Below, in pieces: positions 1,592 to 15,704 of a stretch of 15,704 nucleotides of DNA. The stretch's first letter is position 1. Each line of letters starts with the position of its first letter. The notes below the pieces were generated by a model. That model had not been told where the DNA came from. It made no database searches and saw only the letters and a program-made list of their open reading frames with translations. Source of the DNA: a virus. Lineage: Duplodnaviria > Heunggongvirae > Uroviricota > Caudoviricetes. A program made the translations under genes and the position numbers. The stretch lies in the IMG/VR virus record IMGVR_UViG_2703718817_000007; one strand, given 5' to 3'.

Positions 1592-1719
1592 AACCCCACC
1601 TCGCAGACAAAGCGGGTGTAAATTAAGGGGATACTACGTATCGCAATAAAGGCAGAAACGTAACAGATTCGGAGTCAGTGAATAACTCAGGTATTGGGTT
1701 ATCAGCTAATATCGAGACT

Positions 1720-2180: not shown

Positions 2181-3263
2181 ATGAAAAAATTAACAGTGGC
2201 AATTTCTGCTGTAGCTGCATCAGTACTGATGGCGATGTCTGCTCAGGCAGCTGAAATTTATAATAAAGACAGTAACAAGCTGGATCTATACGGGAAAGTT
2301 AATGCCAAGCACTACTTCTCCTCTAATGATGCAGATGATGGTGATACTACTTATGCCCGTCTTGGCTTCAAAGGTGAAACCCAAATCAACGATCAACTGA
2401 CTGGTTTCGGTCAGTGGGAATATGAATTCAAAGGCAACCGTGCTGAATCTCAAGGTTCTTCCAAAGACAAAACCCGTCTTGCATTTGCAGGCCTGAAATT
2501 TGGTGATTACGGCTCAATCGATTACGGCCGTAACTACGGTGTAGCATACGACATCGGTGCGTGGACTGACGTCCTGCCAGAATTCGGTGGTGATACCTGG
2601 ACCCAAACAGATGTGTTCATGACTGGTCGCACTACTGGTGTTGCAACTTATCGTAACAACGACTTCTTTGGTCTGGTCGATGGCCTGAACTTTGCTGCTC
2701 AGTATCAGGGTAAAAATGACCGCACTGACGTAACTGAAGCCAATGGTGATGGTTTCGGTTTCTCCACTACTTATGAGTATGAAGGATTCGGCGTGGGTGC
2801 AACCTATGCTAAATCAGATCGCACTGACGGTCAGGTCGCCTATGGTAAGAGCAAATTCAATGCCTCCGGCAAAAATGCGGAAGTATGGGCTGCAGGCCTG
2901 AAATATGATGCGAACAATATCTATCTGGCTACCACATATTCTGAAACTCAGAATATGACCGTTTTTGGTAATAACCATATTGCAAACAAAGCACAAAACT
3001 TTGAAGCAGTAGCACAATATCAGTTTGACTTCGGTCTGCGTCCATCTGTTGCTTACCTTCAGTCAAAAGGTAAAGACCTTGGTGTTCATGGTGACCGAGA
3101 CTTAGTCAAGTATGTCGATGTCGGTGCTACTTACTACTTTAATAAAAACATGTCCACTTTTGTTGATTACAAAATCAACTTAATTGACGATAGTAAGTTT
3201 ACCAAAACAGCTGGTATTGATACCGACGACATCGTCGCTGTAGGTCTGGTTTATCAGTTCTAA
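2181..3263 (+). CDS. nmpC: Outer-membrane general porin of the OmpC/OmpF family (NmpC / phage PA-2 Lc-like), intact, 360 aa
   Basis: ORF track 2181..3263. Signal peptide [23 protein letters not shown]|AEIYNK; porin hallmarks ([15 protein letters not shown].., Gly/Tyr-rich beta strands, C-terminal ..VAVGLVYQF). Sits between Q and the lysis genes in the opposite orientation, as nmpC does in DLP12. Preceded by a roughly 400-bp AT-rich region (1780-2180). Confidence 0.9.
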
Positions 3264-3451: not shown

Positions 3452-3835
3452 TCAATTAGAATTATTAGCAACGATATCCATATCTAACCGGATATCTAAT
3501 GCCATTAACATCCCTTCAATTATGCCCTCAGCCTTCTGTAACCTTTTCCCGATATAACCATCCGAGCAGCAATGCTTACTTGCCAGTGACATGAATGTCA
3601 TACCACATACATAATAATCTACTAATAAATCGTGTAAATCGCTGTTGTTCTTTTTCAGACGGGCCATGCACCCGCAAATGATCATCGCGTCATCGTCACA
3701 ACATTGCGGGCGAGATTTTACTTTTGAAGGAATTAATCCCTTAAAACCGGCGGCAATGGACGACCAGGTCACATCTTCATGATTATTAGCCGCCCACGCT
3801 CCCCAACGTTCAAGAACCATCTGAATATCACGCAT
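3452..3835 (-). CDS. Q: Late-gene antiterminator Q (phage 82 / DLP12 QuuD family), 127 aa
   Basis: ORF track 3452..3850 is the TTG-extended form; ATG at 3833-3835 follows GGAG. Product starts [24 protein letters not shown].. with Cys-rich zinc-binding core ([17 protein letters not shown]); length equals QuuD as recalled. Confidence 0.85.
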
Positions 3836-3852
3836 TAACTTTCTCCACAAAA

Positions 3853-6546: not shown

Positions 6547-7196
6547 GCCGCCATCTCCCTGACCAGTTTTTCCGCCTGCTGGCGAACCTGCGCCAGAAAC
6601 GCCTCACCACATGCCTCAAGTTCATCGCGCCCGATGTAGCTGATTGCCGGTCCCTTCCAGGTCTTGTCGAAAACAGCAATAGCACCAGCGAAGAAAGCGC
6701 CTGTCGGCACCTGCTTCTCATCTTTCGGGATAAACCAGGCAGGCAGTTCAAAACCAATACGCCCGCGAATAAAAGCAATATGATCTGCATCTTCCGGCCA
6801 CCACACTTCGCTGGTGGCAGCTTTGATCAGGAAAACATAGCGCCCACCTTTATCACGCATGGCACTGGCATGCTTCATGATGTAACGCATGCCTGTGATG
6901 TATTGCCCCTCATGCTGACTGGCGCGGCTGTATGGGGGATTACCAAAGGCAGCACCTTTAAGCTCCGCAAGACGTTCTGACCAGTCATGCGCCAGCGCGT
7001 TGTCTTCCGCCGTGTAATACGCAGCACATTTGGTGTTATCACCGTCAGTGAACAGATCCAGAACAAACGGGCCAAACAGGGTGTTAATTCCCCAGAAAAT
7101 GTTGTCCGGCGTGCGCCACTGATCGCCCACTTCCTTCAGTTCATGGGCTGGTTTGTTCCGCAGTTCCACCAGCGCCTGGCAATATTTATTACTCAT
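6543..7196 (-). CDS. Phage DNA N6-adenine methyltransferase (Dam-like, YfdM-type), 217 aa
   Basis: ORF track 6543..7229 is the GTG-extended form; ATG at 7194-7196 overlaps the upstream TAA (TAATG). Contains the NPPY catalytic motif (AAFGNPPYS) of amino-methyltransferases. Confidence 0.8.
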   Translation of the reverse strand: MSNKYCQALVELRNKPAHELKEVGDQWRTPDNIFWGINTLFGPFVLDLFTDGDNTKCAAYYTAEDNALAHDWSERLAELKGAAFGNPPYSRASQHEGQYITGMRYIMKHASAMRDKGGRYVFLIKAATSEVWWPEDADHIAFIRGRIGFELPAWFIPKDEKQVPTGAFFAGAIAVFDKTWKGPAISYIGRDELEACGEAFLAQVRQQAEKLVREMAA

Positions 7197-7684
7197 TAAG
7201 CCCCCACGTAATTCCCTGACAGATACCACTCTTCACCCGATGCAGCGCGCTTGCTGCTTTTCCGTAAACACCGCTCACGACGCGCCAGAAAATTGTTTCG
7301 TTCTGGTTGGGAGTGGCTTTCACGGAATGCCGCCATCCACACGGTTGCAGCACGACGGTATAAGCCCCTGGACTCCAGTTCTTCAGCCTGGCGGGTCAGG
7401 CACAAAATTACCCGTGGATCGTTAGTGCCGACATAGAAATTGCGCGCAGGTCTGGTTTCACGAACTGGTTGTGGTTCCGGCTCCTGCGCTCTCTCAGTCA
7501 GGCGCGGGAAATGTCTGCGTGTATCCCCTTCACAACGGTGAGCCACACGCCCACTCTGACGTAACTTGCTTGCTGACTGCAGAACGCGCTGCCGTGAGTA
7601 GCCTGCAAAAGCATCCGCAATGTCTCCGGAAGTACACCCCGGATGGGCTTCAATGAATTTCTGAACTTCATTCAAAAGACTCAT
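7196..7684 (-). CDS. PerC-like / YfdN-like putative transcriptional activator, 162 aa
   Basis: ORF track 7196..7684. C-terminal ..EELESRGLYRRAATVWMAAFRESHSQPERNNFLARRERCLRKS resembles the PerC-family signature as recalled; length close to K-12 YfdN (164 aa). SD AGGGGG before the ATG. Confidence 0.5.
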   Translation of the reverse strand: MSLLNEVQKFIEAHPGCTSGDIADAFAGYSRQRVLQSASKLRQSGRVAHRCEGDTRRHFPRLTERAQEPEPQPVRETRPARNFYVGTNDPRVILCLTRQAEELESRGLYRRAATVWMAAFRESHSQPERNNFLARRERCLRKSSKRAASGEEWYLSGNYVGA

Positions 7685-7686
7685 GA

Positions 7687-8628
7687 TTACCCCCTGAATC
7701 CTGCCGGGATCTGGCTGTAGTCCACGTTGTCGTAACTGGCTTTGAAGTACGCGTCTTCGCGTTTTTCGGTGTACGTGCTTACGGACGGCGATAAGCGCAG
7801 GGAAAGCTCATCCCATTTTTCCCGCAGCTTCGACGGGCTGAGCACGTTACGGCACCAGAACGGATCGCGGCTGACGCGGCTGTACATCTCGCAGATTTGT
7901 TTGTGAGTACGACCATCCTGCACACACATCAGGCGAATTTCGTTTGCCCAGGCTGTCCAGTTCGGTTCTTTGGGACGAACCACCTCGCCGTCACATTCGG
8001 CAGCCTGCTCGTACAGGGCGATGATTTTTTTCCAGAGCCACTGTGCGCAGGTCAAATCATCCTGCGTCCCCCACTGGCGCTTTTTAGGGCTGAATACAAC
8101 CGCATCAGGATGGCGAGTTAAAAAATCCTGTTCAGCCGTCTGCGTGTCCGGTTGCGAAGCGTCCGGACGAGAAGGTTTTTTATCTGACGGATCATGTTTT
8201 GATTTTACTGACGGATCCCCGCCAGATTCTGACGGGTGAAAACCCGCTTTTTTGCCAGATTTCGACGCATCAAATTTTGACGGGTCAGATTTTGATGCGT
8301 CAGATTTTGACGGGTCAGAATCTGACAGTTGAGAAAATGCCGCAGCCTGAAGCTTCGCAACGTTAAGCTGATAAACATTCGACGCATTGCGGTTACCCTG
8401 GCGACGCGCCTTACGCGTTAACCAGCCTTCTGCTTCCAGCCGTGCGATAGCCGTTCTGACTGTACTCATCCCCGCGCCAATCTGGCGGGCAATGGTTTCA
8501 ATCGATGGCCAGCACACACCTTCGTCATTACTGAAATCAGCCAGGCGGGCCATAATTGCCACGCTGGATAATTTCATGCCTGACGCTGCGCAACCATCCC
8601 ATACATAGCCGGTTAATTTAGTGCTCAT
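7687..8628 (-). CDS. Replication initiator (lambda O-like organisation: N-terminal winged-helix domain, repeat-encoded linker, C-terminal domain), 313 aa
   Basis: ORF track 7687..8628. N-terminus (..SSVAIMARLADFSNDEGVCWPSIETIARQIGAGMSTVRTAIARLEAEGWL..) is a typical replication-protein HTH; the middle is a low-complexity linker (SDSDPSKSDASKSDPSKFDASKSGKK..) encoded by tandem DNA repeats; the position after cro/cII matches O. Confidence 0.7.
   Translation of the reverse strand: MSTKLTGYVWDGCAASGMKLSSVAIMARLADFSNDEGVCWPSIETIARQIGAGMSTVRTAIARLEAEGWLTRKARRQGNRNASNVYQLNVAKLQAAAFSQLSDSDPSKSDASKSDPSKFDASKSGKKAGFHPSESGGDPSVKSKHDPSDKKPSRPDASQPDTQTAEQDFLTRHPDAVVFSPKKRQWGTQDDLTCAQWLWKKIIALYEQAAECDGEVVRPKEPNWTAWANEIRLMCVQDGRTHKQICEMYSRVSRDPFWCRNVLSPSKLREKWDELSLRLSPSVSTYTEKREDAYFKASYDNVDYSQIPAGFRG
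8181..8330. repeat. Iteron-like tandem repeats (about 8 copies, 15-bp period) inside the replication initiator gene; candidate origin
   Basis: Copies at 8223-8237 cagattctgacgggt, 8256-8270 cagatttcgacgcat, 8271-8285 caaattttgacgggt, 8286-8300 cagattttgatgcgt, 8301-8315 cagattttgacgggt, 8316-8330 cagaatctgacagtt, plus degenerate copies at 8181-8217 next to an AT-rich patch (8170-8215). Confidence 0.55.
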
Positions 8629-8976
8629 GACCGACCTCTATTTCCCTGAATTTACGACGAAACTGTTCGAGCGGACTGAAGCACTCATGCTCATAGCCTT
8701 CGCGGAGGTAGATAACCCGTTGTGTTTCCGGTTCCCAACGAATGACTCTGACGGGCACTCCGTAGTGATCTTTGAACCAGCGGTTAACTTGTCGCAAAGG
8801 ACTGTCTCCTTCTGCCGGTTGAAATCCCCCACAGCCCACTCTGCAAAGCTGTGGGTTACAATTTCCCTGTCACCTGGTACATTCACTGCATAGCAATATT
8901 CCACCTTCGCTTTTCCACCCGGTACAGGAAGCGCAATCAGTTGCGAGCGACGGTAGTGTGTTGTTAAACTGTTCAT
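8618..8976 (-). CDS. Hypothetical small gene between the cII-position gene and the replication gene; apparently split across two frames (possible -1 frameshift, 1-nt indel, or two overlapping ORFs)
   Basis: Frame A (8638..8976) starts with an ATG overlapping the upstream stop (ATGA at 8973-8976) but its C-terminal half is Ser/Thr-rich and low complexity. Frame B (8618..8839) has globular-looking composition (..[49 protein letters not shown]..) and its stop overlaps the replication gene start. The frames meet at a C5/G5 run (8826-8830). Confidence 0.4.
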
Positions 8977-9542
8977 GCGTTAGTTTCTCCACAACCAGAA
9001 GCAATCGACGCCACGACGCCCGGAGCTGCACACTCGCGGGCGTCATTACTTTCTGAAATGCAAAAAATTTTGTAGACAAGTGCTGCATGCTCCTGCAGCT
9101 TCGAAATTGAGAGATACAGCTCGTCGTTAATTGCTGTCTTCTCATGCGGTTCCACTACACCGTCTTCGATTGCTGAACGAATCTGTTTTGAATAACTGCC
9201 GATCTGTTCAATGACTTCCAGCAGACGCTGGTTAATATCGGCGTTGTCCACATCCTCGACGTCAGGAAGAGACACAAAGACGCCATTTGCAGACTGCGCC
9301 ACAGCATCAGCAATGAAATGAGTGCCACCAGCACGCTGTAAAACCATTGCCCATCCCAGCGGGAAAATCTGATCGCCATCTGCACGAAGGCGGTTGAATA
9401 AAGCGTTTTCTGTTACATCGAGCCAGTCAGCCGCTTCAGCGTAACCACCCGGCAACGCCGCGATAGTTTTTCTGACAGCTTTCACGTACCACTCAGGCTG
9501 TTTTTCTATTTTCCAGTGATGCTTACCCACGATTAGCCTCAT
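8973..9542 (-). CDS. cII-position regulatory protein (HTH-containing; resembles the phage CII / CP76-type family by architecture), 189 aa
   Basis: ORF track 8973..9542. Directly downstream of cro; HTH-like segment [21 protein letters not shown]. Family assignment is from recollection of 186-CII-like proteins and is uncertain. Confidence 0.45.
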
Positions 9543-9573
9543 CGTTCTGTGGTTAAAAATTGAAAGTGTTCTG

Positions 9574-9774
9574 CTAATCTTTCGGATAGATATCCGGTCT
9601 TAAGTCAGATTTCGTAATTGCACCTGACGTGCATTGCTCAAGTTTTTTAGCCAGCACAAAACTGGCTTTTTTATAGCCATTGAAAACCAGCCGTAAGTAG
9701 CCAGGTGTTGAGCCAACTTTTCCGGCCAACTCGCCCTGCTGTTCTTTGGTTAAAGAGTCCCAATACGCTTTCAT
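9574..9774 (-). CDS. cro: Cro-like HTH repressor (YdaS/Cro-type), 66 aa
   Basis: Internal ATG at 9772-9774 of the long ORF 9574..10077, preceded by GGAGGT; product MKAYWDSLTKEQQGELAGKVGSTPGYLRLVFNGYKKASFVLAKKLEQCTSGAITKSDLRPDIYPKD. The upstream 300 nt of the long ORF is antisense to cI and is rejected. Divergent from cI across the operator region. Confidence 0.7.
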   Translation of the reverse strand: MKAYWDSLTKEQQGELAGKVGSTPGYLRLVFNGYKKASFVLAKKLEQCTSGAITKSDLRPDIYPKD

Positions 9775-9777
9775 ACA

Positions 9778-9864
9778 ATATGTACCTCCGGTATACATAT
9801 TACATGATTGAAATGAACCTTCAAGATACTTGTACCTTAACGGTACAAGGGTTTTAATTTCGTT
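9778..9864. promoter_or_regulatory. Immunity-switch operator/promoter region (OR): palindromic operators with divergent pR-like and pRM-like promoters
   Basis: Perfect palindrome CTTGTACC-N5-GGTACAAG at 9829-9849; imperfect ATATGTACC-tcc-GGTATACATAT at 9778-9800. Minus-strand promoter TTGAAG (9819-9824) -16- TAATAT (9797-9802) feeds cro. On the plus strand a TTTAAT-like -10 at 9852-9858 sits about 7 nt before the cI ATG, suggesting a leaderless cI mRNA. Confidence 0.6.
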
Positions 9865-10539
9865 ATGAAAACAATCCATGACATCCGGCGGTCTAACGCC
9901 AGAAAACTGAGAGATGGTGTTGGCGGGAATTCTTCCTTTGCCACTATGATTGATCGCGAGCCAACCCAGACCAGCAGGTTTATGGGAGATGGTGCTACTA
10001 AAAATATCGGTGACAGCATGGCACGACACATCGAAAAATGTTTCGACCTGCCTGTCGGATGGCTCGATCAAGAACACCAGACAACGAACATCACAAAAAA
10101 ACCTGATGTTTCAATCACTAATAAACAAATCACATTAGTCCCTGTCATATCATGGGTACAGGCCGGAGCATGGAAAGAAGTTGGATATTCTGAGGTTGAT
10201 TTGAGCACAGCAGAAACGTATCCCTGCCCTGTACCCTGTGGGGAAATGACTTATATCTTGCGGGTGATAGGTGATTCAATGATTGATGAGTACCGCCCGG
10301 GAGACATGATTTTTGTCGATCCTGAAGTACCTGCCTGCCACGGTGACGACGTTATTGCATTGATGCACGATACAGGTGAAACCACCTTCAAAAGGTTGAT
10401 AGAAGATGGGACACAGCGTTATCTCAAAGCGTTAAACCCAAACTGGCCTGAGCCTTACATTAAGATCAACGGTAATTGCTCTATAATTGGAACTGTGATT
10501 TTCTCAGGAAAACCAAGAAGATACAAAATCAAAGCCTAA
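9865..10539 (+). CDS. cI: CI-type prophage repressor (N-terminal HTH plus C-terminal LexA-like S24 peptidase domain), 224 aa
   Basis: ORF track 9865..10539, ATG start. C-terminal domain has GDSM (Ser nucleophile), ..TFKRLI.. (Lys) and VQAG linker motifs as in lambda cI/LexA. Confidence 0.85.
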   Translation: MKTIHDIRRSNARKLRDGVGGNSSFATMIDREPTQTSRFMGDGATKNIGDSMARHIEKCFDLPVGWLDQEHQTTNITKKPDVSITNKQITLVPVISWVQAGAWKEVGYSEVDLSTAETYPCPVPCGEMTYILRVIGDSMIDEYRPGDMIFVDPEVPACHGDDVIALMHDTGETTFKRLIEDGTQRYLKALNPNWPEPYIKINGNCSIIGTVIFSGKPRRYKIKA

Positions 10540-10551
10540 TCAATGTTTATG

Positions 10552-10576
10552 AACCTGCTTCGGCAGGTTTTTTTAT
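10552..10576 (+). terminator. Intrinsic terminator after cI
   Basis: Stem aacctgc (10552-10558) / gcaggtt (10563-10569), loop ttcg, followed by tttttat (10570-10576); 13 nt after the cI stop. Confidence 0.7.
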
Positions 10577-10578
10577 AC

Positions 10579-10610
10579 TTGACAATGTACCTTTGGGATA
10601 CATAATGTAC
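10579..10610 (+). promoter_or_regulatory. Strong sigma70-like promoter with embedded operator half-sites; candidate pL/OL
   Basis: TTGACA (10579-10584) -16 nt- CATAAT (10601-10606). ATGTACC at 10585-10591 and 10604-10610 with GGATACAT between them resemble the OR half-sites (TTGTACC/ATGTACC). Confidence 0.5.
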
Positions 10611-10690
10611 CCAAGAGAAACAACAAACAGGCAGGACGCCCACGAAGTAGCCGCCTGGAGCATATGAAGTCTAGGATGATTCATTAGCAA

Positions 10691-10718
10691 CAAAAAAGCG
10701 CCCTACAGGACGCTTAGC
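10691..10718 (-). terminator. Intrinsic terminator for the minus-strand moron gene
   Basis: On the minus strand: aagcgucc / gggcgcuu stem (one G-U pair), loop ugua, followed by uuuuguug. The plus strand has an A-run before it, so it should not stop plus-strand transcription. Confidence 0.5.
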
Positions 10719-10728
10719 TCTTTAACAA
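10717..10728 (+). promoter_or_regulatory. boxA-like element (exact match to the rrn boxA core GCTCTTTAACAA), about 105 nt downstream of the pL-like promoter
   Basis: gctctttaacaa at 10717-10728 on the plus strand; followed by a 6-bp hairpin gcaatc-taca-gattgc at 10749-10764 (boxB-like position). May alternatively be part of the cassette boundary repeat. Confidence 0.4.
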
Positions 10729-10747
10729 TCTGGATATCCACAACAGT
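10726..10747. repeat. Left arm of an inverted repeat bracketing the moron gene
   Basis: caatctggatatccacaacagt; core aatctggatatcc is the exact reverse complement of 11294-11306 (ggatatccagatt), with extended similarity (..caaca..) beyond the core. Confidence 0.6.
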
Positions 10748-10753
10748 AGCAAT

Positions 10754-11245
10754 CTACAGATTGCCGTTAAGTTTTCTGGACAACTCCTCAATGGATGGAG
10801 GCGATACGTAATCCGGATTTTTATTCATCAGAAACTTATTTTCACAGTGGAGGCACCTGCTTTTATGAAAAAGCTCATCTTCGCTAACCGGGAATGGTTG
10901 AAGTATCGATACTATCTTTTGTCCAAAACATTTTGGGCAAAGATGCATGGTTATGCTGCCACCGTTCACGATTACCTCCTTCGAGTATACAAAAGTACCC
11001 GACTCAAGTTGGTTAAGGATATAGCCTTCCGTCTGAGCCTCAAAGTTTTCGAATTCTGCAATTTTAGCTTTGAGAGAAGCATTTATTTCTTGATAAGAGC
11101 CCACCAGTTCAACGAGAGACACGCATTCGCGCTGAATAGACGCAAGCTTTGAGTTCAGCTCACCAATAGCCGCATTTACTTCAGCTTGAGTTTTTGCCTC
11201 GTTCATTAGTTTTGCAATCTGGGCTGTTTCACGAATAGCCGTCAT
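10754..11245 (-). CDS. AT-rich moron gene: hypothetical protein with N-terminal coiled-coil-like region and C-terminal CxxC..CxxC zinc-ribbon, about 163 aa
   Basis: ORF track gives 10754..11533, but the first 96 codons are Arg/Pro-rich GC-rich sequence that overlaps the repeats and is unlikely to be coding; the ATG at 11243-11245 begins MTAIRETAQIAKLMNEAKTQAEVNAAIGELNSKLASIQ.. and ends ..HLCPKCFGQK..(24 aa)..CLHCENKF.. The ATG has no clear SD, so the start is uncertain. Base composition is clearly more AT-rich than flanking phage DNA. Confidence 0.5.
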   Translation of the reverse strand: MTAIRETAQIAKLMNEAKTQAEVNAAIGELNSKLASIQRECVSLVELVGSYQEINASLKAKIAEFENFEAQTEGYILNQLESGTFVYSKEVIVNGGSITMHLCPKCFGQKIVSILQPFPVSEDELFHKSRCLHCENKFLMNKNPDYVSPPSIEELSRKLNGNL

Positions 11246-11283
11246 TGCTGCCGTTAATTCAGCGATCACATTGAATACTCTTA

Positions 11284-11329
11284 TTGTTGTTGGGGATATC
11301 CAGATTAACCGAATCCTTGTTGTTGGGGA
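11284..11329. repeat. Right arm of the moron-bracketing inverted repeat plus a 13-bp direct repeat
   Basis: ttgttgttgggga occurs at 11284-11296 and again at 11317-11329; the first copy runs into ggatatccagatt (11294-11306), the reverse complement of 10727-10739. Confidence 0.6.
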
Positions 11330-11557
11330 ATAACCAGGTCCACCTCGCCTGATGTGGCTAAAAGCAGGCACATAACAGCTAAGTATTTTCAACCAGAGAG
11401 AATCCTTAGCGTTGTGGTGAATGCGGCTCAGCGCACGCGGGTTAAGGTTGAGGCTGACAGTCGACCTTCTGTGGATACCCACCCGCCTGGTGTGCAACCT
11501 TCGCCAGGCACCGGGAGGCACCCGGCACCACAACTTTATGCTGTGTGTAGTCCTGGC

Positions 11558-11592
11558 GGTACCAGTTTGTACCCTTGCTTCCGGCTGGTACC
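11558..11592. promoter_or_regulatory. Operator-like GGTACC palindromes upstream of the early-left operon
   Basis: GGTACCAGTTTGTACC at 11558-11573 (contains TTGTACC, the OR half-site) and GGTACC at 11587-11592. Confidence 0.35.
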
Positions 11593-11603
11593 GTCCTTTT
11601 TTG

Positions 11604-11690
11604 CAAAACAGAGAAGAGCATCACCGGACGACGGGCTCATAACCCAATCCATCCGGGCGGCTGCCACCGCAGGTGTTCTTCTCTGTTTTG
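11604..11690 (+). other. Large structured element: 14-bp perfect inverted repeat plus 4-bp extension enclosing a GC-rich loop of about 60 nt, 50 nt upstream of the yfdP-like start
   Basis: caaaacagagaaga (11604-11617) pairs with tcttctctgttttg (11677-11690); cacc (11622-11625) pairs with ggtg (11672-11675). Preceded by a T-run (11595-11602) but not followed by one on either strand, so it is not a canonical terminator. A second small hairpin gacc-ttgcag-ggtc lies at 11704-11717. Confidence 0.5.
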
Positions 11691-11739
11691 TGGAGAAACC
11701 AACCGACCTTGCAGGGTCGATATGATGAGGAGCAGCAAA

Positions 11740-12102
11740 ATGGCTAGCGAACGCAGTACTGATGTGCAGGCATTTATCGGGGAGCTGGACGGCGGCGTAT
11801 TTGAAACCAAAATCGGCGCAGTTCTCAGTGAGGTCGCTTCCGGTGTGATGAACACGAAAACCAAAGGGAAGGTCTCACTCAATCTGGAAATCGAACCGTT
11901 TGATGAGAACCGTGTGAAAATCAAACACAAACTCTCATATGTTCGCCCAACTAACCGCGGGAAAATTTCCGAAGAAGACACCACCGAAACGCCGATGTAT
12001 GTCAATCGCGGTGGTCGGCTGACTATTCTGCAGGAAGACCAGGGACAATTACTGACTCTTGCCGGTGAACCTGACGGAAAACTCCGCGCAGCAGGTCGTT
12101 AA
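11740..12102 (+). CDS. yfdP: YfdP-like hypothetical protein (first gene of the early-left operon), 120 aa
   Basis: ORF track 11575..12102 is the TTG-extended form; ATG at 11740 follows GAGGAG. Length and position (before a 274-aa gene) match CPS-53 yfdP as recalled. Confidence 0.55.
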   Translation: MASERSTDVQAFIGELDGGVFETKIGAVLSEVASGVMNTKTKGKVSLNLEIEPFDENRVKIKHKLSYVRPTNRGKISEEDTTETPMYVNRGGRLTILQEDQGQLLTLAGEPDGKLRAAGR

Positions 12103-12167
12103 TATCGTTCGTAATAAACTGATTATTTATCTCATCACTGAATATCTTTATATAGTGAGGACTTATT

Positions 12168-12992
12168 ATGTCTCAGAACTTAGACGCAACCGCAATTAAT
12201 CAAATCCATGCCCTTATTTCTGCTCAGGGTGTTAATGAAATTATCAGTAAGATTGGTGCCGATGCTGTGGCATTGCCTGAGAATTTCCGCATTCATGATC
12301 TGGAAAAATTTAATTTAAATCGCTTCCGTTTCCGTGGTGCACTTTCCACTGCCAGCATCGATGATTTTACCCGTTATTCTAAAGATCTTGCAGATGAAGG
12401 CACCCGCTGCTTTATCGATGCCGATAATATGCGTGCCGTCAGTGTGCTTAACCTGGGTACTATTGATGAGCCAGGTCACGCAGATAACACTGCCACTCTC
12501 AAACTGAAAAAGACAGCACCGTTCTCTGCTCTGTTGTCTGTTAACGGCGAGCGTAACTCCCAGAAGTCACTTGCAGAATGGATCGAAGACTGGGCCGACT
12601 ACCTTGTGGGCTTTGATGCTAATGGTGACGCTATTCAGGCAACAAAAGCGGCTGCGGCAGTCCGTAAAATCACGATTGAAGCAAACCAGACCGCTGATTT
12701 TGAAGATAATGACTTCAGCGGCAAACGCTCCCTGATGGAGTCTGTCGAAGCGAAGACCAAAGACATTATGCCAGTGGCATTTGAATTTAAATGCGTTCCG
12801 TTTGAAGGTCTGAAAGAACGTCCGTTTAAATTACGCCTCAGCATTATCACTGGCGATCGTCCTGTACTGGTTCTGCGCATTATTCAGCTGGAAGCGGTGC
12901 AGGAAGAAATGGCTAACGAATTTCGTGATCTGCTTGTTGAGAAATTCAAAGACAGCAAAGTAGAAACCTTTATTGGTACTTTCACCGCCTGA
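12168..12992 (+). CDS. yfdQ: YfdQ-like protein (DUF2303-type by recollection), 274 aa
   Basis: ORF track 12168..12992, ATG with GAGGA SD. Length identical to K-12 YfdQ; gene order matches CPS-53. Confidence 0.6.
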
Positions 12993-13004
12993 TTTCATTA
13001 CTGC

Positions 13005-13030
13005 AAATGCCCCTGCGGGGGCATTTATGG
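13005..13030 (+). terminator. Terminator-like hairpin between the yfdQ-like and yfdR-like genes (weak)
   Basis: aaatgcccc (13005-13013) / ggggcattt (13018-13026), loop tgcg; the downstream tail is short (auuuaugg). Confidence 0.35.
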
Positions 13031-13119
13031 AAACGTAATTAACTCAATAATCACCGGATGGTGAGGGCTTCCTTTTACCAGAATTCAGCGCGGTGCAGTG
13101 CATATACGTGGAGAACAAA

Positions 13120-13656
13120 ATGTCATTTATTAAAACTTTTTCCGGGAAGCATTTTTATTATGACAAGATAAATAAAGACGACATCGATATTAACGATATC
13201 GCGGTTTCCCTTTCAAATATCTGTCGCTTTGCCGGTCATCTTTCGCACTTCTACAGCGTCGCCCAACATGCGGTTCTTTGCAGCCAGCTGGTGCCGCAGG
13301 AATTTGCTTTTGAAGCGTTAATGCATGATGCAACAGAAGCGTATTGCCAGGACATTCCCGCACCACTGAAACGCCTTCTTCCTGACTATAAACGGATGGA
13401 AGAAAAAATAGACGCCGTAATCCGTGAGAAATACGGGTTACCCCCAGTTATGAGTACACCCGTGAAATATGCCGATCTCATCATGCTGGCAACCGAACGC
13501 CGCGATCTCGGGCTTGATGATGGCTCTTTCTGGCCTGTACTGGAAGGCATCCCGGCAACAGAGATGTTCAACGTGATTCCACTGGCACCGGGTCATGCCT
13601 ACGGGATGTTTATGGAACGTTTTAACGATTTATCGGAGTTACGCAAATGCGCATGA
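13120..13656 (+). CDS. yfdR: HD-domain phosphohydrolase (YfdR-like 5'-deoxynucleotidase), 178 aa
   Basis: ORF track 13093..13656 is the GTG-extended form; ATG at 13120 follows GGAGAA. His-Asp signature (H..ALMHDATEAY) and length equal to K-12 YfdR. Confidence 0.7.
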   Translation: MSFIKTFSGKHFYYDKINKDDIDINDIAVSLSNICRFAGHLSHFYSVAQHAVLCSQLVPQEFAFEALMHDATEAYCQDIPAPLKRLLPDYKRMEEKIDAVIREKYGLPPVMSTPVKYADLIMLATERRDLGLDDGSFWPVLEGIPATEMFNVIPLAPGHAYGMFMERFNDLSELRKCA

Positions 13657-14009
13657 ATGTTTTCGAAATGGAAGGGTTTCTTCGCGGGAAATGTGTACCG
13701 CGAGATCTGAAAGTGAATGAAACAAATGCTGAGTACCTGTTACGTAAATTCGACGCGCTTGAAGCTAAATGTGCGGCACTGGAAAACAAAATAATACCAG
13801 TGTCAGCTGAACTGCCACCAGCAAATGAAAGTGTTCTGTTATTTGATGCTAATGGAGAAGGCTGGCTGATTGGCTGGCGTTCTCTCTGGTACACCTGGGG
13901 ACAAAAAGAAACCGGAGAATGGCAGTGGACATTTCAGGTCGGGGACCTTGAAAACGTCAATATCACTCACTGGGCAGTAATGCCAAAAGCACCGGAGGCT
14001 GGAGCATAA
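13647..14009 (+). CDS. yfdS: YfdS-like hypothetical protein, 120 aa
   Basis: ORF track 13647..14009; overlaps the yfdR-like stop; length equals K-12 YfdS. An alternative ATG at 13653 gives an ATGA overlap. Confidence 0.6.
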   Translation: MRMNVFEMEGFLRGKCVPRDLKVNETNAEYLLRKFDALEAKCAALENKIIPVSAELPPANESVLLFDANGEGWLIGWRSLWYTWGQKETGEWQWTFQVGDLENVNITHWAVMPKAPEAGA

Positions 14010-14314
14010 TGACCACATTTACCAATAAAGAACTGATTAAAGAAATCAAAGAACGAATCAGCAGCCTAGAGGTTCGAGACGATATTGAGCGCCGTGCTTA
14101 TGAAATCGCACTCGTATCTCTGGAAGTAGAGCCAGATGAACGCGAAGCCTATGAATTATTCATGGAAAAGCGTTTCGGTGACTTAGTAGATCGTCGGAGA
14201 GTAAAAAACGGCGATAACGAATACATGGCATGGGATATGACTCTCGGTTGGATCGTCTGGCAGCAACGAGCTGGTATCCATTTTTCAACAATGACACAGC
14301 AAGAGGTGAAATAA
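14009..14314 (+). CDS. yfdT: YfdT-like hypothetical protein, 101 aa
   Basis: ORF track 14009..14314; TAATG overlap with the upstream gene; length equals K-12 YfdT. Confidence 0.6.
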   Translation: MTTFTNKELIKEIKERISSLEVRDDIERRAYEIALVSLEVEPDEREAYELFMEKRFGDLVDRRRVKNGDNEYMAWDMTLGWIVWQQRAGIHFSTMTQQEVK

Positions 14315-14685
14315 TGGAGCCATACAGCCTCACACTCGATGAGGCCTGTCAGTTTCTTAAGATATCCAGACCAACCGCCACCAACTGGATACGAACAGGC
14401 CGCCTACAGGCAACACGTAAAGATCCAACCAAGCCAAAATCTCCTTACCTCACAACACGGCAAGCTTGCATTGCGGCGCTTCAGTCTCCGCTGCATACTG
14501 TCCAGGTGAGCGCGGGTGATGGCATAACAGAGGAAAGAAAATGTCACTCTTCCGCAGAAATGAAATATGGTATGCCTCGTATTCGCTCCCGGGCGGGAAA
14601 CGAATTAAGGAATCTCTTGGCACAAAGGACAAGCGGCAAGCTCAGGAGTTGCACGACAAGCGAAAAGCAGAACTCTGGCGAGTAG
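14314..14685 (+). CDS. xis: Excisionase-like (Xis / AlpA-type HTH) protein; 3' end uncertain
   Basis: ATG at 14314 follows AAGAGGTGA and overlaps the upstream [38 protein letters not shown] parallels the lambda Xis pattern (YLTLQEW..SLETVRRWVRECRI..EYLF) as recalled. The frame has no stop until 14685, overlapping int by 145 nt, unusually long for an Xis. The ORF-track entry 14230..14685 is the GTG-extended form. Confidence 0.5.
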
Positions 14686-15704
14686 AAAAGCTAGGGGATT
14701 TACCTGATGTCACTTTTGAAGAGGCCTGCCTAAGATGGCTTGAGGAAAAAGCTGATAAAAAATCTCTCGATTCAGATAAAAGCCGGATTGAGTTCTGGCT
14801 TGAACATTTTGAGGGTATAAGGCTTAAAGATATCTCGGAGGCAAAGATTTACTCTGCTGTAAGCAGAATGCATAACAGAAAGACGAAAGAAATATGGAAA
14901 CAGAAAGTTCAGGCCGCCATCAGGAAAGGTAAAGAACCGCCTGTTTATGAACCAAAGCCAGTATCAACTCAGACAAAGGCAAAGCATCTTGCCATGATAA
15001 AGGCCATTCTCCGTGCTGCAGAACGCGACTGGAAGTGGCTGGAAAAAGCGCCTGTCATCAAGATACCAGCGGTCAGAAACAAGCGAGTCAGATGGCTGGA
15101 AAAGGAGGAAGCAAAACGCCTTATTGATGAGTGCCCCGAACCACTGAAATCTGTCGTCAAGTTTGCGCTGGCAACTGGTCTGAGAAAGTCGAACATCATA
15201 AATCTGGAATGGCAACAAATCGACATGCAGCGACGAGTTGCCTGGGTGAATCCAGAAGAGAGCAAATCAAACCGCGCCATTGGTGTGGCGCTGAACGATA
15301 CCGCCTGTAAAGTGTTGCGTGATCAAATAGGCAAGCATCACAAATGGGTGTTTGTACATACCAAGGCGGCTAAGCGAGCAGATGGAACATCAACGCCTGC
15401 GGTCAGGAAGATGCGCATCGACAGCAAGACATCATGGCTATCAGCTTGTCGTCGTGCAGGAATTGAAGATTTCCGTTTCCATGACCTCAGACACACCTGG
15501 GCAAGCTGGCTGATCCAGTCAGGCGTCCCATTATCAGTGCTTCAGGAAATGGGCGGATGGGAGTCCATAGAAATGGTTCGTAGGTATGCTCACCTTGCGC
15601 CTAATCATTTGACAGAGCATGCAAGGAAAATAGACGACATTTTTGGTGATAATGTCCCAAATATGTCCCACTGTGGAATTATGGAGGATATAAAGAAGGC
15701 GTAA
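14541..15704 (+). CDS. int: Tyrosine site-specific integrase (DLP12 IntD-like by length and N-terminus), 387 aa
   Basis: ORF track 14541..15704; SD GAGGAAAG; catalytic R..HxxR..Y signature near the C-terminus ([11 protein letters not shown].., ..MVRRYAHL). Stop coincides with the window end, so the attachment site lies outside. Confidence 0.9.

Follow-up and report, generated by a model that had tools for sequence, protein, structure and literature searches.

The yfdP-yfdT genes of a PhiR49_1-like lambdoid phage: a layered accessory block of the early-left operon downstream of a structured leader RNA

Introduction

The genes yfdP, yfdQ, yfdR, yfdS and yfdT are known from CPS-53 (KpLE1), a prophage of Escherichia coli K-12, and from lambdoid phages of the SfV type; the SfV sequence of 2002 contains the same genes as orf32-orf28, together with cI, cro, xis and int. 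Here we describe this five-gene block at positions 11740-14314 of a 15,704-nucleotide stretch of phage DNA (IMG/VR virus record IMGVR_UViG_2703718817_000007, Caudoviricetes), referred to below as the window. An initial annotation of the window had placed the block between a repressor-controlled promoter and the xis-int genes, had called it an uncharacterised module and had proposed host nucleotide-pool manipulation or anti-defence as its role.

The word uncharacterised was an overstatement, as inhibition of the E. coli replication origin oriC and binding to the initiator DnaA have been published for these genes, and phenotypes of yfdQ and yfdS deletions have been reported. Noguchi and Katayama (PMC4776307) demonstrated that multicopy yfdQ and yfdR together with yfdS or yfdT, without yfdP, inhibit initiation at oriC and suppress over-initiation mutants, and that extracts inhibit oriC replication in vitro. 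Purified YfdR bound DnaA in a manner dependent on Phe46 and competed moderately with DiaA and DnaB (PMC4776307). The K-12 protein SrsR, a host regulator, binds the spacer between yfdO and yfdP and activates yfdPQ in stationary phase (PMC9181523).

The arrangement in the window resembles the early-left (pL) operon of phage lambda in its cI-repressed promoter downstream of cI, in its accessory genes running into xis-int and in its long structured leader. The lambda N leader contains an RNase III hairpin. In contrast to lambda, the window has no N gene, no recognisable nut site and none of exo, bet, gam, kil, cIII or ral, and its leader carries an intrinsic terminator.

Results

In window 11740-14314 we recognise the accessory portion of the pL operon from an intact lambdoid phage of the SfV/mEp460 type, which is essentially Escherichia phage PhiR49_1. 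This deposited phage (45.3 kb; GenBank host ECOR13) is a near-copy of the window, with 99.6% identity across 96% of the window length and 99.9-100% over window 10540-14314, and phages of the PhiR series serve as plaque-forming lambda relatives (2025 preprint). Based on this match the regulatory context is complete, as the initial annotation had supposed, in contrast to K-12, which lacks window 8396-11720. The complete context is not new, having been available from SfV since 2002, and the block is among the commonest E. coli prophage modules: among 5,426 complete E. coli genomes, 1,931 contained at least 80% of its 2.9 kb and 3,604 contained some portion of it. The block is present at 95-100% identity in SfV, SfIV, mEp460, cdtI, Stx2c phages and Ayreon; across the five genes alone, DNA identity is 97-100% in these phages, in SfII and in PhiR49_1. 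They have the same SfV-type layout of cI, terminator, promoter, variable slot, leader, five genes and xis-int; in mEp460 and a number of other phages, Ea22/Eae-type genes take the place of yfdS and yfdT or are present in addition to them.

The five genes lie on the plus strand at 11740-12102 (yfdP), 12168-12992 (yfdQ), 13120-13656 (yfdR), 13647-14009 (yfdS) and 14009-14314 (yfdT). Their order and the lengths of their products (120, 274, 178, 120 and 101 aa, with YfdR counted from an ATG inside a 187-aa open reading frame (ORF) that starts with GTG) are those of K-12 yfdP to yfdT, exactly as first annotated. When the products were compared with those of K-12 MG1655 by global alignment, lengths were equal for all five and identities amounted to 98.3% for YfdP, 99.3% for YfdQ, 99.4% for YfdR, 99.2% for YfdS and 97.0% for YfdT, values that indicate homology rather than chance. 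RefSeq uses the names yfdP, yfdQ, yfdR, yfdS and yfdT in near-identical E. coli loci. Each gene is preceded by a Shine-Dalgarno sequence, and the downstream genes overlap, by 10 nt for yfdR/yfdS and by 1 nt each for yfdS/yfdT and yfdT/xis; translational coupling links yfdS and yfdT with one another as well as with yfdR and xis-int. No convincing plus-strand terminator was found between 11740 and int.

The family matches of the products differ widely. YfdP belongs to PF27127, which is precomputed on all 120 listed homologues, and matches phrog_204 (E 1.2e-49). YfdQ is a full-length member of DUF2303 (PF10065), scoring 309.7 bits against a gathering threshold of 26.6 over profile positions 2-269 of 269. 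YfdR matches phrog_318 (E 5e-110) and the HD-domain protein of PDB 2gz4 (E 3.7e-14), and the metal-binding motif H...HD...D is present (SVAQH, LMHD, KYAD) in alignment with the HD protein Atu1052, which assigns YfdR, by sequence, to the HD-superfamily phosphohydrolases. RefSeq and PHROGs name it a 5'-deoxynucleotidase or deoxynucleoside monophosphate (dNMP) phosphatase. YfdR failed the thresholds of the YfbR-type families (PF12917, 24.3 against 25.9 bits; NF003009, 19.9 against 122) and, given phrog_318 and PDB 2gz4, belongs to a different HD family from E. coli YfbR. Both proteins are of the HD superfamily and K-12 YfdR has been reported to be a 5'-deoxynucleotidase in work cited in PMC4776307, but the reported substrate affinity of YfdR is much lower, and binding to DnaA domain I is not a property of YfbR (PMC4776307). 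The C-terminal part of YfdS (residues 50-117) matches DUF551 (PF04448) marginally, at 22.1 bits against a gathering threshold of 22.0, and the protein matches phrog_583 at E 4e-82; YfdT is without a Pfam family and matches phrog_660 (E 1e-30). The N-terminal segments of YfdS and YfdT are common to several other PHROG families, and the two resemble mosaic "ea" genes. Mutual similarity as the cause of the redundancy of YfdS and YfdT was rejected, as the comparison gave only an insignificant tryptophan-rich match (E 0.31).

To describe gene linkage, 71 loci were counted, each from a different species. A YfdP homolog lies directly 5' of YfdQ in 69 of them; of the remaining two, one is at a contig end and the other has a yfdQ fragment truncated at its 5' end. 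YfdR follows YfdQ in 58 loci, while YfdS-like genes are found in five and YfdT-like genes in four, so that the view of the five genes as a single module did not hold. The module is layered: the first layer is the widely conserved pair yfdP-yfdQ, the second is the HD phosphohydrolase gene yfdR, mostly of Enterobacterales, and the third consists of the mosaic, ea-type yfdS and yfdT. The pairing of YfdP with YfdQ is obligate, and we regard it as a modest new point. In five distant contexts (Xanthomonas phage MET23-P3, a Pseudomonas prophage and three metagenomic or prophage contigs) PF27127 stands directly before DUF2303, with no HD gene in any of them, in early operons near repressors, xis/int or Erf/YqaJ/SSB-type genes (SSB, single-stranded DNA-binding protein). 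In MET23-P3, YfdP is directly 5' of YfdQ, with Erf, a YqaJ exonuclease and SSB downstream; in a second distant locus (L160) the pair adjoins SSB, a PD-(D/E)XK nuclease and DUF1351. The DUF2303 family comprises 1,749 clusters at 50% identity. Domain fusions were considered as a clue to function and discarded, since the representatives of the top 150 of these 1,749 clusters were all single-domain proteins of about 265-285 aa or fragments; the few YfdP-YfdQ "fusions" look like deletion or frameshift artefacts. A scan of viral contigs with the YfdQ alignment returned only copies that were 99-100% identical, and hence added no diversity.

A structure of a YfdQ homolog has been deposited as PDB 9o7m ("YfdQ Protein"), which contains 36 YfdQ chains and is matched by YfdQ at E 1.2e-44; no paper citing the entry was found in our literature search. 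We traced its sequence to MET23-P3 (positions 8001-8825 of that locus, L157). The number of chains hints at a large YfdQ assembly. Since the example chain is labelled "C", chains A and B appear not to be YfdQ. The idea that 9o7m might be a YfdP-YfdQ complex was dropped, as neither the MET23-P3 YfdP nor the 401-aa protein downstream has a PDB match and the YfdP profile finds nothing. Structure prediction, suggested at the outset for the YfdQ-like protein, gave moderately confident models, with a predicted local distance difference test score (pLDDT) of 76 for YfdQ and 72 for YfdP, and fold comparison showed no similarity to single-strand annealing proteins (SSAPs), Gam or nucleases.

The placement of the operon between a promoter and xis-int was borne out, with the reservation that 1.13 kb separates the upstream promoter from yfdP, an interval that includes a convergent gene and a leader containing a terminator. 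The repressor gene (9865-10539, plus strand) encodes a 224-aa cI-type protein with a helix-turn-helix (HTH) domain and an S24 autopeptidase (Peptidase_S24, E 1.5e-26; phrog_4, E 1.7e-49) and is annotated as cI in PhiR49_1 and SfV. A search for repeats (family D1) and palindromes revealed three 17-mers resembling TGTACC-N5-GGTACA at 9781, 9814 and 9831, which form an OR-like cluster in the spacer between cI and cro (9781-9847), at a position equivalent to the "putative operator region" of the SfV annotation. Downstream of cI, an intrinsic terminator (10551-10570, plus strand; GAACCTGCTTCGGCAGGTTT followed by a T-run), which is annotated in SfV, is directly followed by the best promoter-like site of the region, TTGACA-16-CATAAT (10579-10606, plus strand), with 11 of 12 matches and with operator 17-mers at 10586 and 10606. 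Four of the five window matches with up to two mismatches to the operator 17-mer fall either in the cI-cro spacer or at this promoter-like site, and the segment is nearly identical in SfV. The site at 10579-10622 is thus a credible candidate for OL/pL; as in lambda, and judged from sequence, the promoter after cI carries operators common to OR.

Between this promoter and the leader lies a variable slot (about 10686-11340), the contents of which differ between relatives. In the window it holds an accessory gene (10754-11269, minus strand; phrog_1244; RefSeq WP_000559922.1 in a related genome) encoding a 171-aa protein with a coiled-coil N-terminus and a C-terminal CxxC...CxxC motif. The gene is convergent with transcription from pL and has its own terminator (10715-10696, minus strand). 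SfV carries orf33 at this position, on the plus strand and in different DNA, while the related genome has an additional ParA-family gene upstream of the accessory coding sequence (CDS). As the position matches that of rexAB/sieB in lambda, the accessory gene is a candidate for a lysogen-expressed exclusion or defence gene; PADLOC, which covers defence systems, gave no match for it.

Beyond the variable slot, a block of about 400 nt 5' of yfdP (about 11345-11739) is again conserved with SfV and folds far better than shuffled sequence (z -5.1). A structured leader RNA spans window 11534-11739 on the plus strand, directly 5' of yfdP. It contains a terminator-like hairpin and a run of six U residues (11555-11602; GGCGGUACCAG...CUGGUACCGUC, U6 at 11597-11602; -23.3 kcal/mol, z -4.0), continues with a long hairpin (11597-11697) that has an outer stem of about 26 bp and the invariant inner motif GGCUCAUAACCCAAUCC (-51.1 kcal/mol, z -6.0), and ends with a small GC hairpin (11704-11719) followed by the Shine-Dalgarno sequence and the ATG of yfdP. 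An nhmmer search located the leader directly before yfdP in 34 of the 71 species loci. RNAalifold on a 27-sequence alignment (A4) of the whole leader predicted 40 pairs, of which 14 show compensatory changes; in one such pair, 13 sequences have G-C and another 13 have C-G. We consider the covariation-supported leader RNA to be a modest new point. The Prokaryotic Genome Annotation Pipeline (PGAP) calls part of the leader a frameshifted hypothetical CDS, which the RNA evidence suggests to be non-coding.

The 5' half of the leader aligns to the full STnc100 model, which represents the STnc100/PasD prophage small RNAs (sRNAs), and its final element is a terminator hairpin also seen in sRNA-17. The segment at 11381-11604 (plus strand) scored 40.3 bits against RF02076 (E 6.7e-6), below the gathering threshold of 47, and no gathering-level match occurred in 11 diverse related loci; membership in STnc100 was therefore rejected. 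Unlike STnc100, the broadly conserved part of the leader is the long hairpin downstream of the terminator, which lies outside any Rfam family (no match at E<=1). In E. coli K1 RS218, sRNA-17 is located in an mEp460-like prophage, and its deletion raised the reads for yfdP from 0.49 to 47 (about 96-fold) and those for yfdR from 0 to 8.5 (PMC7719688). The hairpin common to the leader and sRNA-17 (GGUACC...GGUACC) was identified through the supplementary alignment of PMC7719688, on which this link rests. Because the hairpin is shared and the deletion de-repressed yfdP and yfdR, sRNA-17 may be the 5' leader or attenuator of the operon and not a free-standing regulator. On the simplest interpretation, the operon is kept silent in lysogens by the terminator in the leader. 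A put-like antiterminator was considered and rejected, as the leader does not resemble the early region of HK022, in which the put sites of that phage lie, and no second copy downstream of pR was convincing. Elsewhere in the window, AGCTGATAACCCAATAC at 1691-1707 (minus strand) resembles the leader motif with three mismatches, where 0.01 matches are expected by chance; a strong terminator is located about 20 nt upstream of this sequence and the holin gene about 100 nt downstream, and no long hairpin surrounds it. Both it and the leader motif are loosely like boxA (GCUCUUUAACAA).

Comparison with K-12 revealed that CPS-53 corresponds to this phage type with 3,325 bp missing (window 8396-11720). 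K-12 sequence matching window 6930-8395 is joined straight to window 11721, 19 nt before the ATG of yfdP, and from there to just beyond yfdT (window 11721-14367) K-12 DNA is 97.8% identical. The deletion removed the 5' part of the O gene, ymfM/ymfL, cro, cI, OL/pL, the accessory gene and the entire leader. The O-like replication gene (7687-8628, minus strand) contains four iterons of the type TCAGATTTTGA at 8270-8325, presumably the phage origin; an Rfam match to mir-5880 at 8270-8325 was dismissed as a spurious product of these iterons. The SrsR boxes footprinted in the K-12 yfdO/yfdP spacer are the same repeats. As the deletion moved the O-gene iterons beside yfdP, the strongest K-12 SrsR site is best understood as a phage origin remnant; whereas the conserved leader would keep the operon silent in lysogens, its loss would let K-12 express the operon under a host regulator.

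Downstream of yfdT, an excisionase-family gene (14314-14685, plus strand, 123 aa) matches phrog_2907 over the full profile (E 1.1e-45) and HTH_17 (E 1.2e-8), and overlaps int by 145 nt. In near-identical genomes PGAP calls just a 63-nt "incomplete" HTH pseudogene at this position, which is probably an annotation artefact. The integrase gene (14541-15704, plus strand, 387 aa) is RefSeq intD and is followed by the argU tRNA-Arg gene in a related genome; related genomes carry this phage at the DLP12/argU site. CPS-53 differs in having torI and intS at argW. At the other end of the window, an OmpC/NmpC-like porin gene (2181-3263, plus strand) is located between the Q-type antiterminator gene quuD (3452-3850, minus strand) and the lysis cassette, on the opposite strand, a placement like that of nmpC in DLP12.

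Discussion

Based on these comparisons and the published work, we read the block as part of a delayed-early pL operon of a Rec-less lambdoid phage, the best-supported activity of which is a block of oriC through YfdR and DnaA domain I, aided by YfdQ and by YfdS or YfdT; we give this reading a probability of roughly one half. In a lysogen, cI bound at OL would shut the promoter at 10579-10606, and residual upstream transcription would stop at the leader terminator (about 11555-11602). Once the prophage is induced, transcripts extending beyond the leader would express yfdPQRST-xis-int. YfdR would then bind DnaA domain I at Phe46, the docking site of DiaA and DnaB, and YfdR with YfdQ and either YfdS or YfdT would block initiation at oriC, the consequence being a shut-off of host replication during lytic growth.

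Several observations weigh against this reading. The oriC phenotype needs multicopy genes, a yfdQRST deletion is without effect on initiation, and the authors themselves allow for an overexpression artefact (PMC4776307). Replication inhibition is known from overexpression in K-12 and from in vitro assays, not from phage infection or induction. Moreover, the phenotype does not require yfdP (PMC4776307), which shows the tightest linkage to yfdQ, and the wide occurrence of YfdP-YfdQ without YfdR implies that the pair probably has a function of its own, which the oriC block does not cover. On the regulatory side, promoter, operators and terminator are consensus-level predictions, no N-like ORF was found between pL and yfdP, and no nut or put element was identified.

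Given the invariant core, one alternative is that YfdP and YfdQ act in DNA metabolism or DNA-end handling (recombination, repair or a replication accessory role) on phage or host DNA, with YfdR, YfdS and YfdT as later add-ons. We regard this as possible, though doubtful. It draws on the Erf, YqaJ and SSB neighbours in MET23-P3 and the SSB, PD-(D/E)XK and DUF1351 neighbours in the second distant locus, on the sensitivity of a yfdQ deletion to methyl methanesulfonate and hydrogen peroxide reported in work cited in PMC4776307, and on the requirement for yfdQ in oriC inhibition (PMC4776307); one may further speculate that chains A and B of 9o7m are nucleic acid. On the other hand, the fold comparisons of the YfdQ and YfdP models did not connect them to SSAPs, Gam or nucleases, and hidden recombinases are unlikely, because the genes are found alongside complete Rec modules and some Rec-less phages do not have them (PMC12315714, which cites ST64B, phiNP, LLS and ArgO145 in its hidden-recombinase argument). 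A related and equally tentative proposal is that YfdP and YfdQ constitute an obligate two-protein early-phage system, ranging from Enterobacterales to Xanthomonas and Pseudomonas, in which YfdQ would form a large homo-oligomer or filament, which might serve host takeover or anti-immunity and which would be gated in enterobacterial phages by the leader RNA, then a hitherto undescribed cis-regulatory element composed of a terminator and a long processed hairpin.

The two roles put forward in the initial annotation appear less probable. Nucleotide-pool manipulation, in which YfdR, chiefly a 5'-deoxynucleotidase, would turn dNMPs into deoxynucleosides in the course of infection, the other genes being unrelated accessories, is in agreement with the HD signatures of YfdR (the match to PDB 2gz4 and weak Pfam YfbR-like and HD_3 matches), with its names and with the assay of the K-12 protein as such, cited in PMC4776307. 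We consider it unlikely, since degrading dNMPs offers no obvious gain to a replicating phage, YfdR scores below the YfbR family thresholds, and the suppressor phenotype requires yfdQ and yfdS or yfdT in addition to YfdR. Anti-defence, meaning that at least one of YfdP to YfdT neutralises a bacterial immune system, as do Gam, Ral and Abc2 from the same operon position, seems to us similarly improbable. The argument for it is positional, these being early-left accessory genes in a phage without gam, ral or abc2: by PHROG annotation, yfdP to yfdT are the sole genes from leader to xis and include no recombination or host-takeover genes (exo/bet/gam or erf/abc). It also appeals to the size of DUF2303, a large phage-associated family, and to the 36-chain homolog structure; large assemblies occur in some sponge-type inhibitors. 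Literature searches for an anti-defence role of YfdP to YfdT found no link, and PADLOC returned no matches. Taken together, these two ideas draw all their support from the position of the genes and from the nucleotidase activity of YfdR in vitro.

A benefit to the lysogen, with prophage-expressed genes raising host tolerance of oxidative, acid or DNA damage, is very unlikely: deletions of CPS-53, yfdQ or yfdS raise hydrogen peroxide sensitivity (Wang 2010, as cited in PMC4776307) and SrsR activates yfdPQ in stationary K-12 cells, but those K-12 data are probably shaped by the 3,325-bp deletion, expression there being an artefact of iterons moved beside yfdP, whereas in the intact arrangement the operon sits behind a repressed promoter and a leader terminator, and in the K1 lysogen yfdP and yfdR are almost silent.

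The recognition of the five genes in the window is correct but ordinary, because the module is very common, its full context was sequenced in 2002 and it was partly characterised in a first functional study in 2016. What our analysis adds are small increments, namely the YfdP-YfdQ pairing, the leader RNA, the exact K-12 junction, a tractable intact phage and an unpublished YfdQ structure. Judging from the pairing data, the unit to study is yfdP-yfdQ rather than the five-gene block. Since the plaque-forming PhiR49_1 carries the K-12 module at 97-99% identity, the overexpression-based model of DnaA inhibition can be tested in a real infection.

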